Shown one piece after another: positions 30,575-62,438 of a stretch of 64,000 bases of DNA; position 1 is the stretch's first letter; each line of letters opens with the position of its first letter. Both the position numbers and the translations under genes were made by a program. Location of the stretch: positions 1-64,000 of the IMG/VR virus record IMGVR_UViG_3300039191_000589. One strand, given 5' to 3'. Below the pieces are notes generated by a model that saw only the letters and a list, made by a program, of their open reading frames with translations, did no database searches and had not been told where the DNA came from. This DNA comes from a virus.

Positions 30575-31030
30575 ATTAAAAGGCTTATAAGAGAATCAAA
30601 AAAAGTAACCACTTATCATGGTACTTCAACTGATAATAAAGATAGTATTTTACAAGATGGATTAAGTTCAACACCAGGTGGATTTGGAAAAGGGGCTTAT
30701 ACAACCACTGATTATGATGAAGCATGTAAATATGCTATTAAAGCAGCAGCAGAGCATATTGAAGATCAATTATATGATAATGTTAATGATTATCCTGAAC
30801 CAATTGTTTTTGAAATTGAAATTGATGATAAAAAAGCTGAATCAATTTATACATCATATTATATTTCTGAAGATGGAATTGATCCTAGTCAAATTGTAAA
30901 ATATGAAAATATATCTAATGACTCACGGTGGGAAAAATTAATAAAATTGTTTAATAAATTTTTAAAAAATGAATTAGATAATGAATGGGAATTTTGGGAA
31001 TATGCCTCAAAAATGTCTAATATTATTTAG
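30575..31030 (+). CDS. ADP-ribosyltransferase-like (H-G-T/PARP/Tpt1-type) protein with KRLIRES leader; ATT start; not in ORF track
   Basis: AGGTGA RBS 6 nt before ATT; 151 codons: (M)KRLIRESKKVTTYHGTSTDNKDSILQDGL...GFGKGAYTTTDYDEACKYA...PIVFEIEI...GIDPSQI; TAG followed by terminator. Confidence 0.75.
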   Translation: MKRLIRESKKVTTYHGTSTDNKDSILQDGLSSTPGGFGKGAYTTTDYDEACKYAIKAAAEHIEDQLYDNVNDYPEPIVFEIEIDDKKAESIYTSYYISEDGIDPSQIVKYENISNDSRWEKLIKLFNKFLKNELDNEWEFWEYASKMSNII

Positions 31031-31054
31031 CCAACTTTTATAGTTGGCTTTTTT
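31029..31054 (+). terminator. Rho-independent terminator
   Basis: AGCCAACT/AGTTGGCT stem followed by T tract. Confidence 0.75.
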
Positions 31055-31136
31055 ATTTTATTGAAAATATTGTTAAAAAATGTTTATTATTTGAATTATA
31101 TTTATATAGGAATTATATAGCATTGGAGGTTTTATA

Positions 31137-32393
31137 TTGGACAAAGATAATATAATTATGCAAGGATTTTATTGGAATGTTCCCAAAAGTGGAAAATGGT
31201 ATAATATTATGGCTAATAAAGCTAAAAAACTATCAAAAGTTGGGTTTGATTCCATTTGGTTTCCTCCACCATGTAAGGGAATGAGTGGTAAAAATTCAAT
31301 GGGGTATGATTTATTTGATCATTATGACTTAGGTAATTATAATCAAAAAGGTACAATACAAACTAGATTTGGAACAAAAGAACAATTAAAAAAAGCTATT
31401 AAAGAATATCATAAATATGGAATAAATGTATACGTTGATGTTGTAATGAATCATATGATGGGGGGAGAATTAGAAAATAACCCTTATAATAATGAAAAAA
31501 CTTATACAAAGTTTAAATATAAACATAGTAAATTTGAAAAAAATTATAAACATTTTCATCCTAATAAAAAACATAACTGTAATCATAAACCATTTTATGG
31601 GGGTGATTTTGAACCTAGTGTTTGTTTCGAAGCAGATAATCAATATATGTTTAATGGTTTAGTAAAATGGTGTAAATGGCTTTATAATGAAATTGGATTT
31701 GATGGATATAGGTTAGATTTTGTTAAGGGAATTCAAAATAAATATTTAAAAAAGTGGAAACAATGTAAACCAATGAATTCTAGTTTTACTGTTGGAGAAT
31801 ATTGGGATGGTGATGATTATAAAATAAATAAGTTTATTAATGAAACGAATATACGTGCTTTTGATTTTAATTTGTTTTATATTTTAAGGGATATGTGTAA
31901 TAACTTTAGTAATTTTGATATGAGGAAATTGGTTGGGGTTGGAGTAAATCCTAATAAATCAGTAACTTTTGTAGAAAATCATGATACTGATCGTGAATGT
32001 CCAATTGTTCAAAATAAAATAATGGCTTATGCTTATATTTTAATGCATGAAGGGTATCCTACAGTCTTTTGGAAAGATTATTATAATTATAATTTAAAAC
32101 ATAAAATTAATAAATTAATTTCACTACGTAAAAAATTTGCTAAAGGTAATACTGTAAATTTATTTTCTAGTACTGAGACTTATATTGCTCAACGAACTGG
32201 TGATCCAGGGGTGATATTTGCATTAAATAATGGTCTTTTACATAAAAATTTTAATATTACAACTAAATGGAAAGATGTTATATTATATGATTATATTAAT
32301 GATAAAGAAATCGGGAAAACTAATAAAGAGGGTCAAATTAATATTTTAATTCCACCCCAAGATTATATTATAGTAGCACCAAAAGAGGTTTAA
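31137..32393 (+). CDS. amyA: Cytoplasmic alpha-amylase, GH13
   Basis: MQGFYW, GFDSIWFPP, MGYD..D.YDLG, TRFGT, DVVMNH, DGYRLDFVKG, VGEYW, FVENHDT catalytic regions; no signal peptide. Confidence 0.9.
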   Translation: MDKDNIIMQGFYWNVPKSGKWYNIMANKAKKLSKVGFDSIWFPPPCKGMSGKNSMGYDLFDHYDLGNYNQKGTIQTRFGTKEQLKKAIKEYHKYGINVYVDVVMNHMMGGELENNPYNNEKTYTKFKYKHSKFEKNYKHFHPNKKHNCNHKPFYGGDFEPSVCFEADNQYMFNGLVKWCKWLYNEIGFDGYRLDFVKGIQNKYLKKWKQCKPMNSSFTVGEYWDGDDYKINKFINETNIRAFDFNLFYILRDMCNNFSNFDMRKLVGVGVNPNKSVTFVENHDTDRECPIVQNKIMAYAYILMHEGYPTVFWKDYYNYNLKHKINKLISLRKKFAKGNTVNLFSSTETYIAQRTGDPGVIFALNNGLLHKNFNITTKWKDVILYDYINDKEIGKTNKEGQINILIPPQDYIIVAPKEV

Positions 32394-32455
32394 ATAATAA
32401 ATATAATTATAAACATTTTATTATTTTTTATATATCTTATGGAAGGAGTATAAAA

Positions 32456-32599
32456 ATGAAAAAAAATGAAGTAAAAAGAATATTAGAAAAGAAAAATAAA
32501 TATGATAAAAAAAATAATATTCCTGAAAATAATGCTCCAACTACTAGTAATAAATATTTTGTTGAATTAGTTTCTTATATATTACAGGAGGTTGATTAA
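32456..32599 (+). CDS. Small hypothetical protein (47 aa, not in track)
   Basis: RBS AAGGAG, ATG 32456, stop just before the exonuclease ATG. Confidence 0.55.
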   Translation: MKKNEVKRILEKKNKYDKKNNIPENNAPTTSNKYFVELVSYILQEVD

Positions 32600-32600
32600 T

Positions 32601-34092: not shown

Positions 34093-34101
34093 TTATTTAA
34101 T

Positions 34102-34128: not shown

Positions 34129-34190
34129 ATTATATAAAAGAATATTTTTTTTATTAGTATAATAGAAATATAATAAAGAGGTGTTAATAT

Positions 34191-34886
34191 ATGGCTGAAG
34201 GTAAGGTACATAAACATTTAAAACAAGTTGCGTTAAGATGGCTTAAATTTAAAGTAACTGATCTTGTAGGAGCCGAAGTAAAATTCCATAATGCTTATTC
34301 AGTGGCTGATGCGGCAGGAGTAAATTTAAAAAGAAAAGAAGTTAGAATAATTGAGGTTAAATCATCAAAAGCAGATTTAAAAAGAGATGATAAATTATTT
34401 AAAAAACCAACTTCCTATTACTATCATGCTCATTATTCATATATCATGTGTCCTGAAGGGGTATTGGATAAAAATGATATACCTAAATATTTTGGTTTAT
34501 TATATGTTGATGATTATGATAATGTTGAAGTTATTAAAAATCCAACAAAAAATAAAGGTAGATTAAAAACATATTTTAAAACAACTTTAAGAAGAACTGC
34601 AAGAGCTTTAACTAATGATAAAATATTTAGTAAAGAAAACATTGAATCATATGATAGAACAAATGGCCACTATAAACGAAAGGCTAAATTATGGTTAATT
34701 AGAACTCGTTGTCCTGATTGTAAGAAACATCCAAAAATATTAATTCATGAAGATAATACTAATATTGTAGAATGTCCTAAATGTGGTACTGAAATAGACT
34801 TAGATAAAGCTAAAGTTAATAAAGTGAGTGGTTATAATAAAAAATTTATTAAACAAGCTAATAATCTAATAGATGGTGATAATTAA
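34191..34886 (+). CDS. MmcB-like PD-(D/E)xK nuclease with C-terminal zinc ribbon
   Basis: E...VADA...IIEVKSSKADLKRD.K...Y...YIMCP...IP..FGLL; CPDC...CPKC. Confidence 0.7.
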   Translation: MAEGKVHKHLKQVALRWLKFKVTDLVGAEVKFHNAYSVADAAGVNLKRKEVRIIEVKSSKADLKRDDKLFKKPTSYYYHAHYSYIMCPEGVLDKNDIPKYFGLLYVDDYDNVEVIKNPTKNKGRLKTYFKTTLRRTARALTNDKIFSKENIESYDRTNGHYKRKAKLWLIRTRCPDCKKHPKILIHEDNTNIVECPKCGTEIDLDKAKVNKVSGYNKKFIKQANNLIDGDN

Positions 34887-35311
34887 TGAAAAGATTAATA
34901 AAAAAAGCATCAAATGTATGGGTTGGAGAACCTGAAGTAAGGTTAGATGAAGGTCCATCAGGATGGGAAGCAGGAGCTTATGATGTTACATGTATGAAAC
35001 AAGGGGAAATAAAAATAGATGCTCTTAAGGGTATTCCTGGGGCTAATGGAGAGAATCGACAATGGCATAAACGTGATGGAAAAGAATATTTTGGTAATTA
35101 TTCAAAAGAAGAATGGGAAGAATTTAAAAATGATTTAGAACAAAATGGAATGAAATATCCTATTTTTATTACAGTTGATAAAGATGGCACTATTTTAATG
35201 AGTGAAGGAAATCATAGAATGGAAGCGGCTAAACAATTAGAATGGGATTCAGTTCCTGTTGAAATTAAATATTTTGGAAATTCCCAACAAGATGTTCATA
35301 AATTTGATTAA
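34886..35311 (+). CDS. ParB/Srx-like domain protein with MKRLIKKA leader
   Basis: DLEQNGMKYPI...EGNHRMEAAKQL...VPV; paralog of 41156. Confidence 0.75.
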   Translation: MKRLIKKASNVWVGEPEVRLDEGPSGWEAGAYDVTCMKQGEIKIDALKGIPGANGENRQWHKRDGKEYFGNYSKEEWEEFKNDLEQNGMKYPIFITVDKDGTILMSEGNHRMEAAKQLEWDSVPVEIKYFGNSQQDVHKFD

Positions 35312-35325
35312 GGAGGAAATTAGTA

Positions 35326-35820
35326 ATGAATAAACTAAAACAATTACAAGATACTATTAAACATAAAAATAATGTTATTGAGATTGGTACTCAATTATCA
35401 CAAAAATTAATGCAGATAGGACATGAAAAATTGTCATTAAAATTATTAGAAAGAATTTATAATCATGACAATACTAAATTTTCAAATCGAGAATTTTATG
35501 GATTAGCAGACAATGTTCATGATAAAAGATCATTAAAAAATGTTAATGAAGATCAAATTGCTAAAGAAGAAAAGATGAAATTCATTAAATTTCATTGGTT
35601 TTCTAATAAACACCATCCAGAATATTATAGTGATGTTAATGATATGAAATTATTAGATATTTTAGAAATGTGTTGTGATTGGTATGCGCGAAGTAAAGAA
35701 TTTGATAATGATCCAATAGAATTTTTTAATAAAAAACAAGGTACTCGATGGAATTTTAATAAGGAAATGCAAGAAACAATAATAAAACATTTAAGAGCTT
35801 TAAAATCTTTAGATAAGTAA
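35326..35820 (+). CDS. DUF5662-like (HD-related) protein
   Basis: HK...HD.TKFS..E...H...NKHHPEYY...M...DILEM.CDW.ARS. Confidence 0.7.
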   Translation: MNKLKQLQDTIKHKNNVIEIGTQLSQKLMQIGHEKLSLKLLERIYNHDNTKFSNREFYGLADNVHDKRSLKNVNEDQIAKEEKMKFIKFHWFSNKHHPEYYSDVNDMKLLDILEMCCDWYARSKEFDNDPIEFFNKKQGTRWNFNKEMQETIIKHLRALKSLDK

Positions 35821-38570: not shown

Positions 38571-38597
38571 AAAAAGGAAGAGAATCTTCTCTTCCTT
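38571..38597. terminator. Probable bidirectional terminator between convergent genes
   Basis: AAGGAAGAGAA/TTCTCTTCCTT stem. Confidence 0.7.
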
Positions 38598-39036
38598 AAT
38601 CTATTATTCTTAAATGTTGATTATTTTTTACCATTGTTTCATGAATATCTTCTAACCATTGCTCCCATTTATCATTTTCCTGCCATGCAGTAATAGAATT
38701 ATTTTCTAATCCTGATTTTATATCAATTATATTTTTTGGTTTAATTTTTTTTGGGTATAAAAAATCATATCCATTAATACATTTTATACATTTGCTTTGT
38801 TTTACTTTAACTGTTAAAATAGAAATTTTATTATTATGCAACCATCCTCCATATTCTATTGCTTTCTCAATGTTATTTGTTAAAAATATTACTCCATTGT
38901 GGTCTGGCCAACATTCTTTAGGTATATCATTATTATACCTAGAATTATAAGATGGAATCAATCCTTTCTTTAAAATTGAATTAATATTATAATCTGGGGT
39001 GCCATGATAAAGAATTTTAGTGTTATTGTTACTCAT
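38596..39036 (-). CDS. ADP-ribosyltransferase/Tpt1-like (H-G-T) domain protein
   Basis: LYHGT....NSILKKGL.P...VIFLT.....A.EY...ILTV...I.PKNI; RBS AGGAGGG on - strand. Confidence 0.7.
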   Translation of the reverse strand: MSNNNTKILYHGTPDYNINSILKKGLIPSYNSRYNNDIPKECWPDHNGVIFLTNNIEKAIEYGGWLHNNKISILTVKVKQSKCIKCINGYDFLYPKKIKPKNIIDIKSGLENNSITAWQENDKWEQWLEDIHETMVKNNQHLRIID

Positions 39037-40325: not shown

Positions 40326-41144
40326 ATGAAAAGGTTAATAAAAAAGTCAAAACATGGTATTGAAAATAGAGATGAAGCATTAACTTACATAGATGGAGAA
40401 ATATATACTGGCCCTAACCATCCTAGGATGATTGATGAATTTTTAAAAGAAAACAAAAAACAAGGGAGAAAAATAATAGAAGATTTTATAGGCAATTTCG
40501 GTCTTGATGATGAAGAAGCTCAAATACTATTAGATAAATTTGAAGATTTAGGAAGAGTTCCATCAAATGTATTATCAGCTTATAATGAATTTGAAAGATC
40601 ATCTGATTATTATCAAGAATTAGGTGATGTTCCATTAGGATTTGGACATATTGTAGAAGATGATAATGCGATATATATTGAAAAAGATTCAATTCAAAAT
40701 GTTGATTTTAATACTATAATTAATGAAATAAAAAATAATTATCCTGATTATAATGTTTATGATGATAGTAGTTATTCTAATTATGGTGGTACTCCTGAAG
40801 ATTATACTAAAGTTGCCAGCAAACAATTAATAAAACAAGCTGCTTATGTATATTGTCGTAATTGTAATTGGAGCCAAGATGATTTTTGGAGTGAATCATA
40901 TAATCCATTGAGGTATTTATTAAATTGAGAAGATATGTTATTAAATGAAGATTTAGAAGAGCAATTTACAGATGATTGTAATTTTATTGATCAATATGGA
41001 AATTTAAGTAAAAAAGAAGTAATTATAAAAGAATTAAATGATGCTATTAATAAAATTAAAAAAATGGAATATAAAAATGAAAAACAATTAAAAAAGAATG
41101 ATAATAGATGCCCACAATGTGGAGAAAAATTAACTAGAGATTAA
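40326..41144 (+). CDS. MKRLIKKS-leader two-module protein with in-frame TGA at 40926-40928 (track splits it into 40326-40928 and 40935-41144)
   Basis: Module 1 paralogous to 43629 gene; module 2 CRNCNWSQDDFW...YNPLRYLLN*EDMLL...CPQCG has CxxC pairs on both sides of the TGA; 40935 ATG is in frame with no clear RBS. Confidence 0.65.
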
Positions 41145-41155
41145 AGGGGGATTAT

Positions 41156-41602
41156 ATGAAAAGATTAATAAAGAAAAGTGAAAATTCTCAATATACTGGA
41201 GCTAAATTAATAACAGTTGAAGATGATTATTTGGATGAAGTACCTGAAGATAAAGTTAAAGATACTCATGTTACTAGAGTATTAGAAGGGGTAATTGATG
41301 TTTTTGATATAATGGATTTTCCAGGTGCTAATGGTGAGGATAGAGATTGGCATTTTAATGGTGATCAAGCATATTTTGGTACCTATACAGAAGAAGAATG
41401 GTATGATTTTTTAGATGATATAGAACAAAATGGTATTAAAAAGAAGGTTTTTCTTAAGGTATTTCCTAATGGTGATATAAAAGTTATAGAAGGAAATCAT
41501 AGAATAAAAGCAGCATTACATCTTAATATTAGAAAAGTACCAATAATGATTAAATATTTTGGCAATTCACAAAAATTTGTAGATTATTTTGATAAACCAT
41601 AA
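41156..41602 (+). CDS. ParB/Srx-like domain protein with MKRLIKKS leader
   Basis: PGANGE.R.WH...YFG.Y..EEW...DIEQNG...EGNHRIKAA; paralog of 34886. Confidence 0.75.
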   Translation: MKRLIKKSENSQYTGAKLITVEDDYLDEVPEDKVKDTHVTRVLEGVIDVFDIMDFPGANGEDRDWHFNGDQAYFGTYTEEEWYDFLDDIEQNGIKKKVFLKVFPNGDIKVIEGNHRIKAALHLNIRKVPIMIKYFGNSQKFVDYFDKP

Positions 41603-41616
41603 AAAGAGGTTTAAAA

Positions 41617-41862
41617 ATGAAAATTAAAAAAGTAATAAAAGAATTTAAAAAGTTTGATAAAGATAATGTTTTAATTAAAACTTTTACTCAAGGGTTTTGT
41701 TATGATTTTGCTTGTATTCTTAAAATGAATTTCCCTAAAGGTGAAATATATTTTATAAAGAATAGAAGGCATTATGTTTTTAAAATAAATAATAAATTTT
41801 ATGATATAACTGGTGAAGTTAATATAAAAAAAGAAGATATTTTAGAAAAAGATACTATTTAA
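41617..41862 (+). CDS. Small conserved-type phage protein (G.CY.FA...H...YDITG)
   Basis: Cys/His/Asp pattern reminiscent of a papain or transglutaminase-like fold (low certainty). Confidence 0.6.
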   Translation: MKIKKVIKEFKKFDKDNVLIKTFTQGFCYDFACILKMNFPKGEIYFIKNRRHYVFKINNKFYDITGEVNIKKEDILEKDTI

Positions 41863-41958: not shown

Positions 41959-43611
41959 GTGTTTAATTTAGATTCTATAAAAAATGAAACTAAAGCACTA
42001 CAACAAGACATAGAAAAAATCCAAGAAAATAAAATTCAAGGAATGCCTCTTGGTGATTATATTTTTAATAAAGTTATTACAAGGGTTGATCCAGTTGAAT
42101 ATTGCGAAAGAGTTTTAAGAAATCATTTACCTAGGGAGCAAACAAAATTACATGAAAATCAAAGGATTTTAGTAAGAGCTGTAACAGATCCTAAAATTCG
42201 TAAGGTTGCAGCCTTGATGTCACGGCAGGCTGGTAAAACAGAATCAATTGCTTCTTTTACAGGTTTTTTGTTAGATAATTATCCAGGAATGAGAGTGGGT
42301 ATATTTACTCCTAGAATTCAACAGGCACAAATTGATTTAGGTCGTACTAAAGTATTTTTTCAAATGAATGAAGGATTATTAAATAATGAAATAGTAAAAG
42401 TAACAAAAGATAAACTTAAATTATCAAATGGTTCATATGCTCAAGCAGTATCTGGTTCTGATCAATCTAATATTGAGGGTTTAACTTTTGATGTAATTAT
42501 ATTAGATGAGGCTCAAAAAATTACTGATTATACTTGGTCTGAACGTATTGCTCCTATGGGTGGTGCTACAAATGCGAAAATGATTAAAATTGGAACTCCT
42601 AAAACAAAAAATCATTTCTTTGAATCAATGAAAGGTTCAGCATCAGAAGCATGGGAGTGTTTATATCGGGATTGGACTGAATGTGAACAGTTATGGGTAT
42701 TAAATCAAACCGTTTTACCTGATCATACTGATCCTGAAAGTGGAAGAGTTCGACCATATTCTACATATGTTTTAGGGTTAATGCCTAAATCCTTAAAGCA
42801 AGAATATTTTCCAAAAAATCCTGAAATATGGACAGAAGGAGAAATGTCAGTTCAGGACTTTAGAACCCAGTATATGTTAAATTTTGTAGCTTCTGCAAGT
42901 AAATTCTTTAAAACACATGAAATTGATAAATTGAAAGATGGAGATTTTCATTGGTTAGAAAGTGGTAGAAGAAATGAAACATATGTAGCTGGTATTGACT
43001 TTGCTGGTTCAAGTGCTGGAAATGCTGACTATACTCATATTTCTGTAATGCGAGTTAATGATGATGGAACAAAAGAAAAAGTGTGGGGTACAGAATTTAG
43101 AGGTAAGCGTTATCCTGAACAAATTAAAGAGATTGCTAGTATTTTTGGTGGTCCTCGTCCAAAATTTATGGTTAAAAGTATTTTTGCAGACTATACTGGT
43201 TGTGGTCGACCTGTTATCCAAACATTACAAGATGAATATGGACTACAACAATTAGAAGGTATAACTTTTAATGCTAAAGATACCTATACAAATTCTGGTA
43301 TGAATATGAAAAATATTATGTATGCTAAATTTAAACATGAATTAAATTATGATCGTGTAAAATATCCTAATCAAGAGAAATTTTTAGAAACAGCAGGTTC
43401 TGATAAAAAAGGATTTTATCATAAAATGATTGGAGAGTGGAGTGATCTTGAGATGGAGATGGGAAGAAGTATTAATAAAAGAATTGAAGCACCATCTGGA
43501 GGTCATGATGATGTATGTGATGCTGATGCTTTAGCTAATTTTGCTGCATTAAATGGTCAACAAAATCGTGGAATGCCAAAACCTAGTCAAGCTAAAATTA
43601 GTCGTTTTTAA
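41959..43611 (+). CDS. terL: Terminase large subunit
   Basis: Q motif, Walker A SRQAGKT, Walker B IILDEAQ, coupling IGTP, nuclease AGIDFA...ADYTGCG...GHDD..DA. Confidence 0.9.
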   Translation: MFNLDSIKNETKALQQDIEKIQENKIQGMPLGDYIFNKVITRVDPVEYCERVLRNHLPREQTKLHENQRILVRAVTDPKIRKVAALMSRQAGKTESIASFTGFLLDNYPGMRVGIFTPRIQQAQIDLGRTKVFFQMNEGLLNNEIVKVTKDKLKLSNGSYAQAVSGSDQSNIEGLTFDVIILDEAQKITDYTWSERIAPMGGATNAKMIKIGTPKTKNHFFESMKGSASEAWECLYRDWTECEQLWVLNQTVLPDHTDPESGRVRPYSTYVLGLMPKSLKQEYFPKNPEIWTEGEMSVQDFRTQYMLNFVASASKFFKTHEIDKLKDGDFHWLESGRRNETYVAGIDFAGSSAGNADYTHISVMRVNDDGTKEKVWGTEFRGKRYPEQIKEIASIFGGPRPKFMVKSIFADYTGCGRPVIQTLQDEYGLQQLEGITFNAKDTYTNSGMNMKNIMYAKFKHELNYDRVKYPNQEKFLETAGSDKKGFYHKMIGEWSDLEMEMGRSINKRIEAPSGGHDDVCDADALANFAALNGQQNRGMPKPSQAKISRF

Positions 43612-43628
43612 ATAAAGGGAGGATAAAA

Positions 43629-44483
43629 ATGAAAAGATTATTACAAAAATCTAGTGTAGAAAAAGTTACCCCTATTGAAAAATCATATAAATCTAAAAAT
43701 CAATTAGATGATTTTATAAGAGATGATAATAAAGATAACAGTGATAATAATGATAATATTGATGATGATTTTAAAGATATTCTTAAACAAAAAGAAAGAA
43801 AATTAAGAAATAATAGTCGATTAACTAAAAAATCATATCATGGTATAGATTCTCGAGATTCAGCATTAACATATTTAGATGGGGAGTTATATGTTACTAT
43901 GACCCATCCAGTTGCAATTGAAAAGTTTTTAGGTTCAAATAGAGAAAAAGGAAAGGAAATTATAGAGAAATATTTAGAAGAAAATAATATAGGTAAAGAT
44001 AGTGAAGAAGGTCAAGATATATTAAATGAATTTGAACAAGTAGGGATATTATCTACTGATATTTTCAATGCATATTCTGAATATTCAAGAAGGAAAGGGT
44101 ATTATCAAGATTTTGGTGATATTCCTTTGGCTTTTGCCCATATTGTAAATGATGGTCTTGCAATATATATTGAAGAAGATTCATTACAAAATGTTGAATT
44201 AAATACAGTTGTAAATAAAATAAAGGGAGAATTTCCTAATTTTGATATTTATAATGATGATAGTTATCCTGAAGAAGATGGTATGCCAGAAGATTATGAT
44301 AAATTAGCAAACCAACTTGATCCTGAAAGAATAAAAAAATATAAAAATATACAAAAAAGACCACGCCCTAATTGGAAATCATTAATATTAAAGACTAAAC
44401 CCCAATATTTAGTTGATAATTATTATAAAAAAAATAAAAGATTAATTAAAGATAGGGATGATAATAATGAAAAGATTAATTAA
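43629..44483 (+). CDS. MKRLLQKS-leader modular protein; internal module begins RLTKKSYHG and is paralogous to 40326
   Basis: RDSALTYLDGE...HP...DIPLAFAHIV...AIYIE.DS.QNV...PEDY.K.A aligns with 40326. Confidence 0.75.
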   Translation: MKRLLQKSSVEKVTPIEKSYKSKNQLDDFIRDDNKDNSDNNDNIDDDFKDILKQKERKLRNNSRLTKKSYHGIDSRDSALTYLDGELYVTMTHPVAIEKFLGSNREKGKEIIEKYLEENNIGKDSEEGQDILNEFEQVGILSTDIFNAYSEYSRRKGYYQDFGDIPLAFAHIVNDGLAIYIEEDSLQNVELNTVVNKIKGEFPNFDIYNDDSYPEEDGMPEDYDKLANQLDPERIKKYKNIQKRPRPNWKSLILKTKPQYLVDNYYKKNKRLIKDRDDNNEKIN

Positions 44484-44643
44484 AAAATCTTATAATTATT
44501 ATACAACTCGCGATATATTTTTATCAAAAAATAAAGTTGATTTTAATTACTTTGATGAAATAAAAAGGTTGATAAAAAAAAGAAAAAATAAAAAAGATAA
44601 AAAGGATGAATCAAATGAAAAAAAACATAAAACAAGAGTTTAA
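44467..44643 (+). CDS. Small basic MKRLIKKS-leader protein
   Basis: ATG 44467 after AGGGA; KRLIKK occurs twice. Confidence 0.6.
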   Translation: MKRLIKKSYNYYTTRDIFLSKNKVDFNYFDEIKRLIKKRKNKKDKKDESNEKKHKTRV

Positions 44644-45457
44644 TTCACAAGTATTTGATTATGGAATTAAATTAATTAACCCTTTTAATATATGGAAAAC
44701 AACTTATGGAGCAGGTATAAAAGTAGGATTATTAGATTCAGGTATTGATTATAAACATTCTAATTTAAATAAGAATTTTGTTAAAGGGGTTAACTTTACC
44801 TCTAATGATAAAGATGATTATATGGATTATAATGGTCATGGTACAATGTCAGCTGGGGTAATAAGTAGTTATAATGATATTGGATCTGTTGGTATTGCTC
44901 CTAATATTAATTTATATAATTTAAAAGTATTAGATAAGAATGCTAAAGGAAATATAGATAATATAAAAAAAGGTTTATTATGGTGTATAAGAAATAATAT
45001 TAAAATTATTGTAATGAATTTTGGTTTAAATAATAGTGATAATAGTCTTCATAGAATAATTAAAAAAGCTTATACAAAACAACTTATTATGGTTGCTCCT
45101 ACTGGAAATGAAGGTAAAGAATCAACTTGTAATTATCCAGCTCAATATAAAGAGGTAATATCAGTAACTGCAATAAATAAAAATTATGAAATACCTAGTT
45201 TTGCTACTATAGATAATGCTGAAATTTCTGCCCCCGGAACAAATATTACTACAACTTATCTTGATAATAAATTTATATCAGCTTCTGGGACATCATTGGC
45301 ATCATCTTATATTGCTGGAATAATTGCTTTATTACAAGGGGAAAACTTAGAAAACAATAAGAGATTTTTAAATCAAAATCAAATTAGAAAAAAATTGTTT
45401 AAACATTGTAGTAAAATAAAGAATTTTGATATTAAATATTTTAGTTTTGATAATTAA
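44606..45457 (+). CDS. Subtilisin-like serine peptidase (S8)
   Basis: LLDSGID (Asp), NGHGT (His), GNE oxyanion, SAPG, SGTSLA (Ser); no signal peptide or propeptide. Confidence 0.9.
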   Translation: MNQMKKNIKQEFNSQVFDYGIKLINPFNIWKTTYGAGIKVGLLDSGIDYKHSNLNKNFVKGVNFTSNDKDDYMDYNGHGTMSAGVISSYNDIGSVGIAPNINLYNLKVLDKNAKGNIDNIKKGLLWCIRNNIKIIVMNFGLNNSDNSLHRIIKKAYTKQLIMVAPTGNEGKESTCNYPAQYKEVISVTAINKNYEIPSFATIDNAEISAPGTNITTTYLDNKFISASGTSLASSYIAGIIALLQGENLENNKRFLNQNQIRKKLFKHCSKIKNFDIKYFSFDN

Positions 45458-45509
45458 ATGTTAAAAAAAAATCATATAATCTATATAATTTATATAGATA
45501 TGTTAATAA

Positions 45510-46760: not shown

Positions 46761-46771
46761 GAGGGTAAACA

Positions 46772-48552: not shown

Positions 48553-49494
48553 ATGACTAGTAAGAATTCTGATGTTTTATATGATAATAGAAAGAATGTT
48601 AGTGAAGATCCAGCATATGATTATAGGAAAAATTTAAATTGGAGAATTGATGGTGGCCCTCATAATGATGAAATTGAGGATCCAGGAATTAATGAGTTTT
48701 ATAAAGGTTACCAAATTAACCCTTATGAATTTAGACGGTGGGCTAATAAAAATTTATCAAAAAAACAACTAGAAAAATTATCAGCCCAAGAAGTAATGCC
48801 AATGAAATTTACTACTGATTATTTAGCTGATAAAATTTTAACTTTATGGAATGGAGTCGATGGACCTTTACAATATTTCTTTGATGGGTTTACATTAAAA
48901 TATGATAATAAATTAAAACAAGATATAGCTAAAAAATTAGAACAAAAAGGGTATAAAATATATCCAACCTTAACTGATGATCAACCAAATGATATAAGAT
49001 CAAGAAATGGAGAACATCGCCAAGTATATAAAGAAGTAATGTCTTCTAACAATGTTGATAATATATTAAAATATGCCAAATGTGTTTCTCAACATTGTCA
49101 AGCGGTTAATTTATTAGAAGGAGAAATTAATGATTTAAAAGAAGCTGGAAATGAAATTGAAAAATCAGATGCAAGTGGATTAGCTGAATATTATAAAAAT
49201 ATATTTCCAGAAGATTATGCAGTTTCTTTAGTTAATATTATGTTAGATGATTCTTTAGATGGTGCTTCAATTAATGATGAAAGCTTAGATATTAGTTATC
49301 CCCATGATCAATATCAACACATGTCAGAAGAATCACAAAAACAAATTGAAGATTATATGTCTGGAAATGCTGACCCTTATTATAATAAAGATGGTGGCGG
49401 AGAGTTTGGGTATAATTTTGTTACAGATATGAGAAATGATACAACACGCCCTACTCAGTATGAAACTAAAGTTAGTAATAAAAAAAAAGGTTAA
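48553..49494 (+). CDS. Probable head-associated protein; joins the next ORF by a -1 shift at A9
   Basis: 313-aa frame ending at A9 run 49480-49488. Confidence 0.7.
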   Translation: MTSKNSDVLYDNRKNVSEDPAYDYRKNLNWRIDGGPHNDEIEDPGINEFYKGYQINPYEFRRWANKNLSKKQLEKLSAQEVMPMKFTTDYLADKILTLWNGVDGPLQYFFDGFTLKYDNKLKQDIAKKLEQKGYKIYPTLTDDQPNDIRSRNGEHRQVYKEVMSSNNVDNILKYAKCVSQHCQAVNLLEGEINDLKEAGNEIEKSDASGLAEYYKNIFPEDYAVSLVNIMLDDSLDGASINDESLDISYPHDQYQHMSEESQKQIEDYMSGNADPYYNKDGGGEFGYNFVTDMRNDTTRPTQYETKVSNKKKG

Positions 49495-49898
49495 TAAAAA
49501 AATCTAATGAAATTGAAAATATCCCTTTATATGAAGTAATGAATGCTATTTCACAAGCTAGTAAAAATGTTTCAGGTTTATTAGGAGAAAAATTAGTTCA
49601 ACCTCCAGTATTGGTAGATACTATACGAGAACAAGAATTTAGTAATATACAAGAAGATAATTCTAGTTTTGAAAATGTAGTAGATACAATTAATGTAGTT
49701 CGGGTTCATGAAATTTGGGAGGTTTATTTAGGCGATATTGATGATAAAAAAGATATAGAAACTATTTTTATAGTCATTTCAGGAGACAATAAAATTAAGC
49801 AAAAATATGAAAAAGGAGATTGGAATAATATTGAATATCAAGGTTTTTATTCTACCCTTGAAGAAGCTAAAAATAATATTAAAGGTTATTTAGACTAA
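49482..49898 (+). CDS. KRLIKKS-led module reachable only by frameshift (track start 49539)
   Basis: Frame reads KKRLIKKSNEIENIPLYEVMNAIS...; no RBS at 49539; stop at 49479-49481 precedes it. Confidence 0.6.
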   Translation, partial: KKRLIKKSNEIENIPLYEVMNAISQASKNVSGLLGEKLVQPPVLVDTIREQEFSNIQEDNSSFENVVDTINVVRVHEIWEVYLGDIDDKKDIETIFIVISGDNKIKQKYEKGDWNNIEYQGFYSTLEEAKNNIKGYLD

Positions 49899-53784: not shown

Positions 53785-54189
53785 ATGAAAAGTAGATTAA
53801 AAAGAAATCACATAAAAAATCGTATAATGAATAAAACTGCTGCTTCAAAAGCATATATAGATCTTCACTCTATTGTATTACAAAGTGGGGATTATATTGC
53901 TTTTGAGGCAAGAATTACTAATAATGAACCTTGGTTTAATATACGTCATGAAACACAATATAGTTCAAGTTCATTTTATAATGGAAATGATTTTGATAGA
54001 GCATGTGAAGTATATGGTGAAATATTAATAGCTTTTAAGGGAACTGTTGGCACTGAAGAAATGAAAGAAATTAGAAATAATATTGAACAAGAAATTGAAA
54101 TTTTAATGGAAGATCATAAATTAATTAATAGAGACAATCATAATCAGCTTAATAAAAACCCTTATTTTTTAGGAATAAATAATTTTTAG
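53785..54189 (+). CDS. Head-region protein with basic MKSRLKR leader
   Basis: RBS GGGGTGA. Confidence 0.7.
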   Translation: MKSRLKRNHIKNRIMNKTAASKAYIDLHSIVLQSGDYIAFEARITNNEPWFNIRHETQYSSSSFYNGNDFDRACEVYGEILIAFKGTVGTEEMKEIRNNIEQEIEILMEDHKLINRDNHNQLNKNPYFLGINNF

Positions 54190-56476: not shown

Positions 56477-59400
56477 TTGAGTAGAATAATTACTAACAAT
56501 AACAGTAATAACAATAGTAATAATTCTCAACAAGGAACAATTAATCGAAGATATGCAAATCATGGAAACAATGGTAGTATGATGAAATCAGCTATAACTG
56601 ATAAAAATTCACTACCAAATAATGTACAAAATCAAATAAATAAGAAAAAAGGCCCTAGAGCTAGAACAGCTAACGTTAACCGAAATAATACTAATCAAAA
56701 TAATAATGGTGGTATGCAAAAACAAGGTGCAGTACCACGTGGTGGATACAACGGGTATGGTGGTGGTATGGCTAGTGGATCAAGTGCTAACATAAAACAA
56801 TCTAGTCCAGAGTTTTATCATCCATTATTTCAAAATTTAAATATGATGTTACCACGTGATAGAAGGGAAAGAAATGAGTGGTGTAGACACTTTTACCGGG
56901 TTGAACCAATTATTGCTACAGCTTTAGATTTACATACTGAATTTCCTATTTCTGATTTTGATAATGTTGCTTCTGATCCATATATTAAAAAATTCTTTGA
57001 TCATATGGCTTTTGATAAATTAAATATGGTTAATTTACTTCTTGATATAGGATTAGAATATTGGAAAATAGGTGATGTATTTCCATTTGGGCAAATAAAT
57101 GAATCAGAAGGTATGTGGGAAAAGTTTGTATTATTAAATCCTGATTATATAGATATTCAATCATCAGTATTAGCGGAGGATCCAGTAATGGAATTAATTC
57201 CTGATGCTGAAATACAATCAATTGTTAATTCAGGTCCAAATGGAAAATATGGTGATATATATGATCAATTACCTGATGATGTAATTAGGCAAGTAAAAAT
57301 GGGGAAAAACATTAAATTGGATAGTAGATTAGTTTCACAAATTTCACATAAAGCTGCTCAGTATGAAACTTGGGGAACTCCAGTTATGATGCGTTGTTTT
57401 AAAACATTAATTTATAAAGATAAATTACGACAAGCACAAGATGCAATTGCTAATAGACATATTACTCCTTTAAGGGTAGCGAAGATTGGTCAACCAGGAG
57501 AACCAATGCCTTCGCAGGATGATTTAGATGCTTTTAGAGATACTTTAATGCAAGCTGATCAAGATCCTAATTTCTTTTTAGTATATCATTATGGATTACA
57601 ATTTGAATATGTTGGTTCTAATGGTAAAATTCTTCCACTAAACCAAGAATTTGATTTTATTCAAAAAGAACTAATGAATGGATTAGGAATAAATCAAGCA
57701 ATGTTAAATGGTGAAGGTCCTACGTATTCAAATGCACAAGTTGGATATGATACTTTAGCACGTCGTTATATGGCTTATAGGTTGCGTTTAGAATCATGGA
57801 TTAAAAATAAGGTATATAAACCAATAGCTGAAATTCAAGGTTTTTATGAATCAAAGAATGGCGAAATAAGTGCTAGTAATATGACTCCTAAGCAAAGAAA
57901 AATTTCAGCTCAACGAGGTGATATGGAATTAGTTATTCCAGATATTACATGGCGTGAACAAGATTTAACTACTAATCAAAGTGCAATGAATTTTATCCAA
58001 CAATTACAACAAAAAGGTTTAATTTCTATGCAAACAGTATTACCAATGTTAAACCTTGATCCTGAAACTGAAAAGAAACAACTTGAAGAAGAAAGAGGAA
58101 CAGTATTTGATCCAGATGCACCTAAGACAGGTCCTTTACCAAATCAAGGTAGTGGTTCTGGAAATCCAAAACCAGGCGATAAAAAACCATCAACTCCAGA
58201 TAAATCTGATAGTGGTGGAGATTCCGGTGGAGATTCAGATACTACTAAAGAAACAAGTATACAAGATTTTTTCAGTAAAACAGGAAGAATAAAAACTTCG
58301 TCATATAATAAAAAAAATAATAAAGAAAAACAATCAGTAGAAGCAACAATAAATTGGCGAAATACTATGGAACAAATTGGATTAAATAGTCAATTTAAAA
58401 AATATTTAATTTCAATAAATCAAGAAGTAGAAGATTATTATAATGAATTATTAAATAATATTGAAGTTGATATGGAGGAAGATCTAGATGAATTTTCAGA
58501 AAATGTTACAGCAGTATTAGATTATTATACTGAACCAATTGTAAAAATAGGAAAAGAAAAAATAGCAAATACAATTAATGAGGATATTGTTGAAGAGGAA
58601 GAGTTTATTAATCACTATAAAAATAATGATTTAAATGATTTTGAAAAAACTTTAAAGGATGCTTTAAATAATTGTTTTGGTGAATTAAATAATAAAAAAT
58701 TATTTGAAGAAATTAGTGAAATTATTTTTGGTTTTTGTTTGAAATTATTTAGATATTCTCAATTATTAGAATGTCTTAATCATAATATTAAAACCGTTTC
58801 ACTATCCAGTAATTATAATAGTTGTCCTATTTGTAGAACTAAAAGTAAATTTAATCATAATGTAGGTGATTTGATTGATAATATTGATGAGTTTCATGAA
58901 TCATGTAAATTAGTAATTAAACCTAATATAAAAGAAAGTGTTGAAGAATTATCTATTAAAAATACTAATATTAAATTTATTAATATACCAAAATCAATCA
59001 AAAATGAAATTGAACCACTAATTAATAAGATAAAAATGTCAACACCAGAATTATTAAGTGATAAAACAATTAAATTTGTTAATAATATAAGTGATTTAGA
59101 TGAATTTAATACTTTATTAAATAATAATCATCCTAAAGATAGAGTTAATCAAATTATTAATGATGTTCAAGGGAGTGTTGTTTCATTTGAGTATAATAAT
59201 GAGATATTTATTTCAAATGAACATTTAGAAAATATTAAAAATATTATTCTTAAATCAATATTAAAGGATAAATTAATGTTAAATAATGATTTAGGTTTTT
59301 GGAGAAAAGAATATAATAATAAGAAAAAATCAAAATATATTGGTAATGGAGTATCAATCTATGCTAAACCTTTTATAAATTATTTAGCTGAAGAAGATTT

Positions 59401-59527
59401 TAAAACATATTTTATTGAAAGTGCTATATATTATATTTTAAATCCACAATTATTAAAATCTATTGATAAAAATAATTATAAACAGCTTAAGGAAAATGTA
59501 TTTAATAATATAGAGTTTAGGGTGTGA
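56477..59527 (+). CDS. Portal protein fused to a C-terminal MuF-like head morphogenesis domain
   Basis: Portal-like core (W.R.FY..EP.IA.A.D.H..FP; EYW..GDVF; LNPD.I; WGTP...R.FK.L..KD.LR.AQ); G/S/P/D linker; then CPIC...FH.SC motif; upstream of prohead protease. Confidence 0.75.
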   Translation: MSRIITNNNSNNNSNNSQQGTINRRYANHGNNGSMMKSAITDKNSLPNNVQNQINKKKGPRARTANVNRNNTNQNNNGGMQKQGAVPRGGYNGYGGGMASGSSANIKQSSPEFYHPLFQNLNMMLPRDRRERNEWCRHFYRVEPIIATALDLHTEFPISDFDNVASDPYIKKFFDHMAFDKLNMVNLLLDIGLEYWKIGDVFPFGQINESEGMWEKFVLLNPDYIDIQSSVLAEDPVMELIPDAEIQSIVNSGPNGKYGDIYDQLPDDVIRQVKMGKNIKLDSRLVSQISHKAAQYETWGTPVMMRCFKTLIYKDKLRQAQDAIANRHITPLRVAKIGQPGEPMPSQDDLDAFRDTLMQADQDPNFFLVYHYGLQFEYVGSNGKILPLNQEFDFIQKELMNGLGINQAMLNGEGPTYSNAQVGYDTLARRYMAYRLRLESWIKNKVYKPIAEIQGFYESKNGEISASNMTPKQRKISAQRGDMELVIPDITWREQDLTTNQSAMNFIQQLQQKGLISMQTVLPMLNLDPETEKKQLEEERGTVFDPDAPKTGPLPNQGSGSGNPKPGDKKPSTPDKSDSGGDSGGDSDTTKETSIQDFFSKTGRIKTSSYNKKNNKEKQSVEATINWRNTMEQIGLNSQFKKYLISINQEVEDYYNELLNNIEVDMEEDLDEFSENVTAVLDYYTEPIVKIGKEKIANTINEDIVEEEEFINHYKNNDLNDFEKTLKDALNNCFGELNNKKLFEEISEIIFGFCLKLFRYSQLLECLNHNIKTVSLSSNYNSCPICRTKSKFNHNVGDLIDNIDEFHESCKLVIKPNIKESVEELSIKNTNIKFINIPKSIKNEIEPLINKIKMSTPELLSDKTIKFVNNISDLDEFNTLLNNNHPKDRVNQIINDVQGSVVSFEYNNEIFISNEHLENIKNIILKSILKDKLMLNNDLGFWRKEYNNKKKSKYIGNGVSIYAKPFINYLAEEDFKTYFIESAIYYILNPQLLKSIDKNNYKQLKENVFNNIEFRV

Positions 59528-59531
59528 TTAT

Positions 59532-59876
59532 ATGAATATAGGAATTATTTGTAATATAAATGATAATAAACCTATTGGAGTTATTGGAATTGAAGATAGT
59601 GGTGGAGAAGTTGATTTTATTACTCAATCAGAAAAACTTAATAGTGCTATAAGTATAATTTTAGAGCAAGATAAAATTAAAATGCCAATTAAAGAAGGTT
59701 TAGAACAAAACGAAATTATTAGAAATAAATATGTTACTTCAAATACTCCTCATTATTTATCTGGAATTAATTATAATTTACCTCGTCCTTGGAGAATATT
59801 AGGGGTGAGGTATCTAAAGGGAACCTTACAAGATCAATTAAAGAAAATGTATGATGAAATAAATCAATTAGAATAA
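59532..59876 (+). CDS. Hypothetical head-region protein
   Basis: Open frame in operon. Confidence 0.7.
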   Translation: MNIGIICNINDNKPIGVIGIEDSGGEVDFITQSEKLNSAISIILEQDKIKMPIKEGLEQNEIIRNKYVTSNTPHYLSGINYNLPRPWRILGVRYLKGTLQDQLKKMYDEINQLE

Positions 59877-59890
59877 GAGGGGGTGTTTTA

Positions 59891-60232
59891 ATGAAAAGAC
59901 TAATAAAAAAAGAGGGTAATAATGTATCTCCAAAAATGCATGAAGAAGTTGAAAAACATATAGAAGATTCTAATAAAGGTAAAAATAGATCAAGAGAATT
60001 ATATTCTCAACAAGAATATATTACAGCCAAAAGAATTTTAGCGGAAATACCTGTTACTCCAACCAATGAAAGGATTTATGAATTAGTTGAAGATATAAAA
60101 AAAGGAGAGTTTAAAGATATTTCTACTGTTGCTCAAGCGAAAAAGAATTGGTCTGATTGGGTAAAAAGAACCACTACAATTTTAAAAGATCGTGGAGTAA
60201 TTGGAACACAAGTTAATAATAATATAGAATAA
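59891..60232 (+). CDS. MKRLIKK-leader protein
   Basis: RBS GAGGGGG. Confidence 0.7.
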   Translation: MKRLIKKEGNNVSPKMHEEVEKHIEDSNKGKNRSRELYSQQEYITAKRILAEIPVTPTNERIYELVEDIKKGEFKDISTVAQAKKNWSDWVKRTTTILKDRGVIGTQVNNNIE

Positions 60233-60253
60233 TATAAATGGAGGCTGGTTTTT

Positions 60254-60793
60254 ATGAGTAAAGTTAAAATTAAAAATAATATGAAAAATACTACATTAAC
60301 ATTAGGAAATAAAAAGGTTGGTTTTAATAAAACAATTAATTTAACTAATGAGGAATTTAATAAATATATTACATTAGATATGATTAATAATAATGATGTT
60401 ATTTTAATGGAAAAAATTCCTAATAAACTTGATGAGCTAAATAATTCTACTGGTGATGTTGATACAATTGATGAGGTAAAAGAAATAATTGATAATATTA
60501 ATAATAGTATTGATTCATTAGAAACAACAACTAGTTCACTTCAAAGTACAACTGGTGATTTATCCACTGAAAATTCTAATTTATCTAATGAAATTAATAC
60601 AATTAATGAGGATTTATCCTCTATTAAAACTGATATTACTAATTTACAAACTGATGTATCTTCATTACAAGATAATTTATCACAATTAACTACCGACGTA
60701 AGTACAAATAGTGATGATATTTCCACAATTGAGACAGATTTAATAAATTTAGAAGATAGAATAACACAATTAGAAAATAATACAACTGCATAA
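60254..60793 (+). CDS. Coiled-coil (fibre-like) protein
   Basis: Long heptad pattern ending LEDRITQLE. Confidence 0.65.
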   Translation: MSKVKIKNNMKNTTLTLGNKKVGFNKTINLTNEEFNKYITLDMINNNDVILMEKIPNKLDELNNSTGDVDTIDEVKEIIDNINNSIDSLETTTSSLQSTTGDLSTENSNLSNEINTINEDLSSIKTDITNLQTDVSSLQDNLSQLTTDVSTNSDDISTIETDLINLEDRITQLENNTTA

Positions 60794-60800
60794 TTTATTA

Positions 60801-60830
60801 ATAGAAGGGTTTTTTCCCTTCTATTTTTTT
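60801..60830 (+). terminator. Rho-independent terminator
   Basis: ATAGAAGGG/CCCTTCTAT stem followed by T tract. Confidence 0.75.
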
Positions 60831-60901
60831 ATTTTATTATATTTTTTTATCTTATGTTTATTTAAAATATGAACAATAATATTATTTAAGGTGGTGAAGG
60901 T

Positions 60902-61825
60902 ATGTTAATTAAAACTGATACACAATTTAAAATTAATGATTATTATACCAACAAAGATGAAATAACTTTTGTTACTAATAAAGAGCCTGATTTTAATTTA
61001 TTAAAACAATCAGATACATTGAAGGTTAATAAAAAAGTAAAAAAAATTATGAAAACAGCAAAAAAGGTTAAAATTGCTCCTAAAGAAAGTGATTTTATTT
61101 ATGTAAGAAATAGAGCTGTTTCAGCAGGGAATGTAATTGATAAAAAAAATGGTGAAACACAATTAATTCCAATTGATGAATTTTATAAGTTTTTTGAGAA
61201 ATATGCTAATAAAGTAAGAGGGGCAAATGATAATGGAGATTTCTTTTCCCATGAAGAGTTAAAAAGAACTTATAAAACGTTTATAGGTAAATCTGCTTTT
61301 GTTGATCATCAAAATGATAATGTAGAAGATGCTCGTGGTATTATTTTAGATGCAGTATATAATGAAAAAGGTAGGTTTGTTGAACTATTAAAAGCAGTAG
61401 ATAAAAAAGCATATCCTGAATTAGCAAGAGGAATCGAATTGGGATATATTACAGATACTTCAATGGGATGTCGTTGTGGTTATTCTATATGTTCAATTTG
61501 TCAAAATGAAGCTACAACTGAGGATGAATTTTGTGAACATGTTTTATATTATAAAGGTACTTCATATAATGGATTGCCGGTTTTTGAGGATAATAGAGAA
61601 ATTGAATTTTTTGAAGATTCATTTGTTACTCAAGGTGCTGATGAAGATGCTAAAATTATGGAGAAGGTTGCTAAAATACAAAAAAATACTACTATTAAAA
61701 AACATAATAAAAGTTCACATAATAATAAACTAATGCAAAAAATTGCTAATGAACAAAATAAAAGAACTCGAAAAGGTAGAGTTAATACAATGTCAAATAA
61801 ATTAAATAATTTACCTTGGACTTAA
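60902..61825 (+). CDS. Capsid maturation (prohead) protease
   Basis: NDNGDFF..EEL....TFIGK..FVDH.N....ARG.ILDA...P.LA..I..G....TSMGC....SICSIC...FCEH...F.E.S.V..GAD..A. Confidence 0.75.
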   Translation: MLIKTDTQFKINDYYTNKDEITFVTNKEPDFNLLKQSDTLKVNKKVKKIMKTAKKVKIAPKESDFIYVRNRAVSAGNVIDKKNGETQLIPIDEFYKFFEKYANKVRGANDNGDFFSHEELKRTYKTFIGKSAFVDHQNDNVEDARGIILDAVYNEKGRFVELLKAVDKKAYPELARGIELGYITDTSMGCRCGYSICSICQNEATTEDEFCEHVLYYKGTSYNGLPVFEDNREIEFFEDSFVTQGADEDAKIMEKVAKIQKNTTIKKHNKSSHNNKLMQKIANEQNKRTRKGRVNTMSNKLNNLPWT

Positions 61826-61886
61826 CTTATATTTTATATATTTTATTTTATTTAAATATTAAAGAATTGAAATTAGGAGGAAAAAT

Positions 61887-62438
61887 ATGAAACGGTTAAT
61901 AAGAAAAGCATTAATGGATCCTGAAACATTTGAAAATGCGATTGAACAATTAGGTACCCAAGGGAGAGATATTTTAAAAGAAATTGAAGAATTTAAATAT
62001 AAATTAGATCAAGTTACTAGGATTACTCAAAATGATGAACAATTAACTAATAAATTAGAAAATAAAAAAAATGCTGTAGATAAAGCTGCTAATCAATTAT
62101 ATACAATTATATTTGATTTGGAAAATTTAGATATAACTCAATTATATCATCAATATGATGAAAATGTAAATGATCAAATGCCTCATAATCCATCTGATAC
62201 ACCAGAACAGCCTGGGGATATGAATACTAATGATGAAGAAAATGAACGCGAATATGACTCACCTGATGACACTGAGGATATTGAGACGCCTGATAATCCT
62301 AATAGTGATAATAATGAAGATGAAAATAATGAAGATAACGAAGATAATGAAAGTGGAGATAATGAAAATAATGATGATGGTGAAGAAGAAAATAATGAAG
62401 AAAATGAAAATAATGAAGAAAATGAAGAAAATAACTAA
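61887..62438 (+). CDS. MKRLIRKA-leader protein with E/N-rich acidic tail
   Basis: RBS AGGAGG. Confidence 0.7.
   Translation: MKRLIRKALMDPETFENAIEQLGTQGRDILKEIEEFKYKLDQVTRITQNDEQLTNKLENKKNAVDKAANQLYTIIFDLENLDITQLYHQYDENVNDQMPHNPSDTPEQPGDMNTNDEENEREYDSPDDTEDIETPDNPNSDNNEDENNEDNEDNESGDNENNDDGEEENNEENENNEENEENN

Follow-up and report, generated by a model that had tools for sequence, protein, structure and literature searches.

In bacteriophage T4, a short N-terminal peptide, the capsid-targeting sequence (CTS), is present on the unrelated proteins IPI, IPII, IPIII, and Alt and is cut by the protease gp21 (PMC9026906; PMC5694885). A likewise short N-terminal peptide recurs in the DNA analyzed here, positions 1 to 64,000 of the virus record IMGVR_UViG_3300039191_000589 (hereafter the window; the IMG/VR record spans 110,097 bp and is 26% complete according to the CheckV estimate): about 12 mostly unrelated proteins of this phage begin with one eight-residue leader, MKRLIKK followed by Ala or Ser. 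The CTS is found on core and internal head proteins and on an ADP-ribosyltransferase (ART), and its set of tagged proteins varies among related phages, as is the case here. The ART in question, Alt, bears the CTS and is cleaved and ejected (PMC9026906). T4 gp21 has the same assemblin/gp21 fold as the prohead protease encoded in the window. However, the CTS ends in L/I-x-E and resembles MKTYQEFIAE, whereas the leader is basic, ends in K-K-[A/S], and is without sequence similarity to it; the CTS comprises 10–19 residues as compared to eight here, where 10–22 carriers occur per genome. Moreover, the leader belongs to an HK97-type, non-T4 lineage infecting Bacillota, and packaging and cleavage are proven for the CTS and putative for the leader. 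The leader is functionally nearest to the T4 CTS, but it has neither the sequence nor the cleavage motif of a CTS and comes from an unrelated lineage.

In the giant phages phiKZ and SPN3US, many head-loaded ejection proteins are trimmed by a gp21-like protease (PMC5694885, PMC10052503), and some paralogs among them have identical N-termini; however, their propeptides are mostly longer than 100 residues, carry Glu at P1, and do not constitute one short tag across families. The domain types found here (ART and ParB-like) also occur in polyvalent effectors, including DdrB of phage P1, which are delivered with the DNA and for which processing into units has been proposed (PMC5512222). Those domains are carried by MuF, portal, or large-carrier fusions with zincin-type autoprocessing, whereas the proteins described here are small, stand-alone, and leadered. 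Mitochondrial presequences cut by MPP are basic N-terminal peptides as well, and an M16 peptidase is a core gene here, yet the presequences are far longer, have Arg at P2/P3, and serve membrane translocation, features that the leader lacks. Encapsulin cargo-loading peptides likewise are short and place unrelated cargo in an HK97-fold shell, as the leader would do. They are usually C-terminal and uncleaved, and contain other motifs.

A recurrent N-terminal leader

All leaders listed in the preliminary description of this DNA were found at their sites, and further copies were added: one at 44563, one close to the C-terminal end of the 43629 protein, three with other wordings at internal positions, and two beyond the window on the same contig. 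The sites and the open reading frames (ORFs) that contain them are as follows; gp numbers refer to Bacillus/Lysinibacillus phage G.

30575–31030, + strand, ART-fold protein of 151 aa; leader (I)KRLIRES on an apparent ATT start, in a frame that opens three codons past a stop, with a good ribosome-binding site (RBS)
34886–35311, + strand, ParB-N-like protein of 141 aa; canonical ATG leader MKRLIKKA (24.4 bits in the position matrix, PSSM, described below)
40326–40928, + strand, protein with an uncharacterized domain; canonical ATG leader MKRLIKKS, and internal KQLIKQAA (40821–40844) before a CxxC module
41156–41602, + strand, second ParB-N-like protein, of 148 aa; canonical ATG leader MKRLIKKS
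43629–44483, + strand, protein of 284 aa in the TerL unit; canonical ATG leader MKRLLQKS, acidic spacer, internal SRLTKKS (43815–43835), then a domain of the 40326 type, and KRLIKD near the C-terminus
44458–44643, + strand, ORF of 61 aa; canonical ATG leader MKRLIKKS at 44467 and a second copy, KRLIKKR, at 44563; overlaps the start of the S8 subtilase ORF in another frame
49485, + strand, start-less leader-like copy KRLIKKS in the −1 frame, directly behind a run of nine A residues (A9)
53785–54189, + strand, gp9-like protein; variant leader of the MKSRL[KR][KR] type, in the long form MKSRLKR...NKTAA
54202–54432, + strand, gp10-like protein; variant leader of the same type, (GTG)KSRLRK
59891–60232, + strand, gp17-like head-module protein of 113 aa; canonical ATG leader MKRLIKKE
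61887–62438, + strand, gp20-like helical protein with an acidic tail, a possible scaffold/core protein; canonical ATG leader MKRLIRKA
62468–63469, + strand, gp21-like scaffold candidate; internal SRLKKKES (62570–62593) before a conserved YVDDIQT block
65221, outside the window on the same contig, MKRLIKKS
80502, outside the window on the same contig, MKRLLKN

The seven canonical starts in the window follow the pattern ATG-KRL[IL][KRQ][KE]. Together with 65221, they make up the eight MKRL starts observed on the 110-kb contig, which has 157 ORFs in total and for which composition predicts 0.04 such starts. A PSSM built from 36 distinct leaders gave the same result: at each of four thresholds (10, 12, 14, and 16 bits), eight N-terminal matches were found on the contig, as compared to 0–0.05 in shuffled proteins. 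Within proteins, KRL occurs 11 times in 33,102 residues, which is the background rate; thus, the excess is specific to N-termini. As the preliminary description had stated, the early region lacks the motif: none of the 63 ORFs with a start before position 30,500 scores above 3.2 bits, compared with at least 18 for true leaders. Chance and whole-protein homology are ruled out as explanations, the protein bodies being unrelated. The earlier statement that the tagged proteins are unrelated holds for most of them; the exceptions are the ParB-N paralogs 34886 and 41156 and a domain common to 40326, 43629, and 65221. ATT is the sole plausible start codon for 30575. An apparent ATT start is also found in a second leader gene, at 14285 of a related locus (L028); both have good RBS spacing and no usable ATG, GTG, or TTG.

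The genome has a G+C content of 22% and the commonest coding of the leader is A-rich (ATG AAA AGA TTA ATA AAA AAA); the leader could in principle act at the mRNA level, as an operator or an enhancer of translation initiation, or simply follow from AT-rich 5' codon bias, which the preliminary description had named as a possible refutation. Such an origin is highly improbable. Codons indeed differ between copies, as noted earlier: in a survey of 43 leaders from the source phage and related phages, Arg is encoded by six codons (AGA, AGG, CGT, CGA, CGG, and CGC) and Leu by four (TTA, TTG, CTT, and CTA). This free choice includes first-position changes that preserve the residue, which argues for selection on the peptide rather than on the RNA. 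The motif also persists in relatives with a G+C content of 21–34%, internal copies lie far from any start codon, and only 35 of the 157 ORFs start with MK, none of those in the early region continuing with RL. A Sec/Tat signal peptide is ruled out by the lack of a hydrophobic h-region: none was found in the tagged proteins, in all of which polar or charged residues follow the leader.

A text search of the literature for KRLIKK returned one unrelated plant paper and nothing else. No mention of the leader was found in the papers examined on phage G, jumbo phages, and viral ARTs, and the text of a 2025 phage G multi-omics paper contains no per-protein list and does not mention the relevant ORFs.

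Conservation in phage G and related phages

By its portal and gene order, the source phage is a relative of Bacillus/Lysinibacillus phage G, the genome of which comprises 497.5 kb. The window has a G+C content of about 22%, and nearly every gene is on the + strand.

56477–59527, + strand, portal protein of 1016 aa; N-terminus MSRIITN, faintly leader-like

The portal is 46% identical to phage G gp14+gp15 over 92% of its length. Its ORF spans both gp14 (the portal of phage G) and gp15, which are either fused here or split in phage G. The gene order is that of phage G: TerL, M16 peptidase, sigma factor, gp4-gp13-like genes, portal, gp16-18-like genes, and, after these, the prohead protease, gp20/21-like genes, the decoration protein, and the major capsid protein. 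Hundreds of metagenomic relatives of the portal exist, some on contigs of 300–560 kb.

Twenty-three related IMG/VR loci (numbered L) were fetched, of which five were repeats (L012 is phage G itself; L018, L019, L020, and L022 cover the same stretch as L017), leaving 18 distinct loci that were scanned. The leader is present in 14 of these 18 (21–34% G+C), with the consensus K-R-L-[I/V]-[K/R]-K-[A/S]. In phage G, a whole-genome scan found about 22 N-terminal leaders on both strands, dispersed throughout the genome, compared with 0–0.25 expected. MKRL starts number 13 (0.18 expected), and the PSSM yields 16–17 N-terminal matches at thresholds of 10–14 bits, as against 0–0.25 in shuffles. About one third of the phage G leaders begin on TTG or GTG. 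Examples are:

gp13, MKRLISKT
gp17, TTG-KRLIKKS
gp20, MSKKISRLKKTA
gp37, MKRLIKKA

Variant leaders are present on phage G gp5, gp9, and gp10. Scanning the whole genome and its relatives, as the preliminary description had proposed, therefore places the leader throughout the lineage and far above chance; it is established as a signal that acts at the protein level, is portable and strictly N-terminal, and is used by the whole phage lineage.

The orthologs of individual carriers show where the leader ends. In the gp17-like and gp20-like families, leaders vary in length and wording (e.g., MFKRLS, MKSRLRKIA, MKDLRTKKVA, and MKRLIKKS). Among 14 aligned gp17-like sequences, a basic, variable leader, most often with Ala or Ser as its last residue, precedes a conserved NHVSP-type start, and gp20-like orthologs in 14 loci all have a leader-type start, with a conserved LM.P..F block right after the small residue. 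A variable leader whose Ala/Ser end abuts a conserved block fits the pattern that might be expected of a removable propeptide, and these alignments suggest that the small residue is the final residue of the leader rather than P1'. For the 53785 protein, which carries the long variant, the orthologs in L010 and L028 begin with MKRLIKQAS and MKRLIKKAS.

The same evidence bears on the idea that the leader stays in place as a tag, for binding DNA or membranes, for docking to some phage hub that is not the prohead, or as a degron for ClpXP or a host protease. In favor are the small size and strong basicity of the leader and the presence of ClpP and ClpX genes in phage G, in which several tagged genes also lie behind early-type, TTTACA-N17-TATAAT-like sequences (read by eye). 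Nevertheless, an uncleaved tag is unlikely: the near-invariant small residue at position 8 with a sharp boundary after it, and the repetition of the motif at domain junctions, both point to a cleavage site. A ClpXP degron as the main role was rejected, as ClpP is encoded in only two of the five complete relatives, whereas the leader is seen throughout the lineage.

Proteins carrying the leader

In the window, the carriers are one ART-fold protein, two ParB-N-like proteins, proteins with the uncharacterized domain, and the gp17-like and gp20-like proteins that flank the prohead protease. Phage G carriers include at least four YHGT-type ART-fold proteins, two related paralogs, one ParB-N protein, and one SLOG protein.

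The 30575 protein matches PF00644 (PARP) at 1.3e-5, which is below the cut-off. In its AlphaFold2 model, residues 1–9 form a coil and the first strand (residues 10–18) contains YHGTS; in a Foldseek search with this model, all top matches belong to the ART superfamily (Tpt1/KptA, PARPs, and ART toxins). His15, Gly16, and Thr17 are invariant in the ART alignment, in which V-Y-L and E-x-E-I-D blocks can be read by eye. Judged by the modeled fold and H-Y-E type motifs, the protein and its phage G paralogs are members of the ADP-ribosyltransferase superfamily. A leaderless ART paralog is encoded at 38596–39036 on the − strand and starts with MSNNNTKILYHGT where the tagged protein has its leader. 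It is one of two minus-strand ORFs of at least 100 aa located outside larger plus-strand genes (the other being 239–1387), and is bounded by a bidirectional terminator at 38574–38597.

A profile search with the ART family covered 1.84 billion cluster representatives, and the best 150 matches (numbered P) were analyzed. Of these, 83 are small (at most 400 aa); 44 of the 83 begin with [M]KRL[IV][KR]K[AS] and have YHGT at positions 13–14, while the leaderless small matches mostly start 2–4 residues ahead of YHGT. The remaining 67 are longer than 400 aa, reach 4,167 residues, and in many cases contain multiple copies of the domain. Together, these matches show one enzyme domain in three forms: bare, leadered, and within giant polyvalent-type proteins. 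The tandem arrangement, with two to five YHGT-type ART domains in proteins of up to 4,167 aa, occurs in other lineages (P0125–P0221), and such long multi-ART proteins are probably polyvalent virion proteins. For polyvalent proteins, ARTs, and DdrB-type ParB domains, packaging in phage heads and delivery at infection have been argued or demonstrated (PMC5512222, PMC9503650).

The two ParB-N-like proteins score 22.0 (34886) and 23.7 bits (41156) against PF02195, the cut-off being 26.3 bits, and several ParB PHROGs match; their phage G homolog reaches 37.2 bits, above the cut-off. A homolog search with the 34886 protein returned only the query. For the uncharacterized domain of 40326, a search of the ESM Atlas gave no lead. 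The 40326–40928 ORF is separated by an in-frame TGA (within 40926–40937) from an ORF in the same frame, 40935–41144, with a CxxC pair on either side, like one zinc-binding module that has been split; the TGA could represent read-through, a sequencing error, or a pseudogene.

Leader-like copies at domain junctions

Besides N-termini, leader-like copies are found where domains meet. In 43629, ...NNSRLTKKS immediately precedes an internal copy of the domain that in 40326 comes after the N-terminal leader. In L021, the gp20-like protein is extended at its N-terminus by a segment that starts with its own MKRLIAND, and it reads NTRLKKIA at the position where other orthologs begin. In the tandem ART proteins P0193, P0204, and P0137, a leader precedes each module.

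A further copy is located at a putative recoding site in the head module:

48553–49898, + strand, gp5/gp6-like head-module pair; −1 shift on the A9 run at 49470–49478, with KRLIKKS (49485) at the junction
A9–A10 slip sites: window, 49465–49500; L007, ~2770; phage G, ~5840; L009, ~4290; L021, ~3295; L011, ~3890

The gp5-like ORF (48553–49494, 313 aa) ends on the A9 run, and the gp6-like frame, open from 49482, is in the −1 register, with neither a start codon nor an RBS. The same A9–A10 run and −1 arrangement recur in L007, phage G, L009, L021, and L011, whereas in L029, L017, and L026 the two parts form a single in-frame ORF. As the parts are one ORF in three relatives and the same A-run is present elsewhere, the gp5/gp6 fusion protein is real. 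Across nine phages, its junction reads ...[KR]RLK(K)K[VI]..A or KRLIKKS. The conserved −1 site looks like a case of programmed ribosomal or transcriptional slippage, and phage G gp6 is probably annotated too short.

Candidate processing enzymes

Three peptidases encoded in the window were considered:

44606–45457, + strand, subtilase (Peptidase_S8, 4e-39), accessory
45510–46760, + strand, M16 (insulinase/MPP-type) zinc peptidase with an HFTEH motif, between TerL and the sigma factor
60902–61825, + strand, prohead (capsid maturation) protease of assemblin fold (phrog_18299, 8e-18)

In the prohead protease, His136 and Ser187 are invariant among 13 orthologs, and K-T-A-K near residue 52 is conserved. 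The core is well modeled by AlphaFold2, and the best Foldseek match is T4 gp21 (5jbl, E 1.5e-3, prob 1.0), followed by herpesvirus assemblins, a weak but coherent result. A search for related loci with the protease sequence alone returned no loci. Cleavage by herpes assemblins takes place after the Ala of (V/L/I)-x-A|S, a pattern with which Ile-Lys-Lys-Ala|Ser appears compatible. The capsid protein has a similar N-terminal stretch, Y-L-I-[A/S]-K-A-L, conserved in ten orthologs; as this protein is 77–92% identical overall, the conservation says little. At its own C-terminus, the protease reads ...NLPWT (61811–61822), LPW[ST] being invariant in the 13 orthologs, and the gp21-like scaffold candidate ends similarly in ...NLDWT plus six residues (~63430–63441). 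LPWT/LDWT may be a common capsid-docking motif at the C-terminus.

Each of the five complete phage-G-like relatives encodes one copy of the M16 peptidase, which is a candidate for a processing or scavenging role. MPP and other M16B enzymes recognize basic N-terminal presequences with Arg near the cut, and the leader might accordingly be a presequence-type signal for this clade-core enzyme, acting in the cytoplasm (e.g., in enzyme activation or timing) with no loading into the head. The enzyme has an intact HxxEH motif, belongs to the TerL unit, and co-occurs with the leader in all five complete relatives. Yet the leader is far shorter than typical MPP-type presequences (~15–50 residues, amphipathic), its invariant Arg lies 5–6 residues ahead of the boundary deduced from orthologs rather than at P2/P3, and the M16 peptidase is itself leaderless. 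The link to the head module and the parallels with polyvalent proteins would remain unexplained. Such a purely cytoplasmic role is thus considered quite unlikely.

Tagging of the S8 subtilase is doubtful: its ORF is read in another frame than the leader-bearing one, and the S8 homolog in L009 is leaderless, so that the subtilase is probably not tagged. As a processing enzyme, it was rejected, being absent from all five complete relatives. With ClpP in two of these five and S8 in none, neither is a general partner of the leader.

Possible role in head loading

The reading favored here, tentatively and at slightly under even chances, is that the leader is a T4-CTS-like head-targeting propeptide, cut after its small residue by the assemblin-fold prohead protease. 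The leader would dock otherwise unrelated proteins onto the assembling prohead core, the docked set consisting of conserved head-module proteins and variable enzymes (ART-fold, ParB-N, SLOG, and others). The prohead protease would then remove it at or just past the small residue, and the mature cargo would be retained in the head and ejected together with the DNA. Motif copies between domains would allow fused, polyprotein-like cargo to be cut into units. Head targeting, cleavage, the cut position, the acting protease, and ejection are all steps that we infer.

Tagged genes are found on either side of the portal and the prohead protease, and two (43629 and 44467) belong to the TerL unit. Head targeting is suggested because conserved head-module proteins beside the portal and the protease carry the leader, because the carriers include enzyme types that are packaged in other phages, and because the leader is absent from early genes and the protease has the gp21/assemblin fold. 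A removable propeptide is suggested because the conservation boundary is sharp after the small residue and the motif repeats at junctions. The comparative pattern fits, and thereby supports in part, the T4-like head-loading tag proposed in the preliminary description.

Several observations weigh against head loading followed by cleavage. The leader, at eight residues, is shorter than the T4 CTS (10–19) and contains no Glu, and hence does not fit the cleavage motifs documented in the phage prohead-protease literature examined. The M16 peptidase, as a second clade-core peptidase, could equally be the processing enzyme. Internal leader matches are only mildly enriched (3 vs. 0.9 expected here; 6 vs. 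1.9 in phage G), and some could be relics of gene fusion. The tagged genes of phage G are scattered over the entire genome, and the promoter-like sequences ahead of them could mean early expression.

A more far-reaching possibility, which is doubtful, is that the basic code serves both as head address and as assemblin-protease cut site, so that any tagged protein would be packed into the T=52 capsid, freed (from polyprotein-like fusions as well), and injected. If true, the injected set would include at least 20 phage G enzymes, six or more of them of ADP-ribosyltransferase fold; no phage that can be cultured would have a larger injected arsenal defined by a tag, and the leader would be a ready tool for packaging foreign proteins. 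If the leader is a head address, sequence would suffice to read which proteins are packaged and injected throughout a megaphage lineage that comprises phage G and, with genomes of 180–560 kb, hundreds of its uncultured relatives, and the leader, like the T4 CTS, might be used to load foreign proteins into a very large capsid. It would also supply a cleavage code, the first for this branch of assemblin-fold prohead proteases, and might provide a role for the unexplained core M16 peptidase. The set is rich in ART-fold and ParB-like enzymes, which would probably act against host defenses upon entry. As phage G can be cultured, the idea is directly testable.

Transcription context

A scan of the window for sigma-70 promoters returned 173 matches, compared with 165.5 in shuffles; at this level, the timing of expression is not readable from promoters. 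Terminator-like hairpins, on the other hand, are enriched (10 vs. 2.5 expected) and bound the units 34191–35820, 40326–41862, and 41959–47362. Within the last of these, 43629 and 44467 are grouped with the genes for TerL, the M16 peptidase, and the sigma factor. In the early region, a near-identical stretch is located directly upstream of the ATG of five ORFs (3180, 4677, 5075, 6267, and 7019) and, with TTG taken as the start, translates to LEVDNM; this points to an RBS/5' cassette that is repeated before different small genes.

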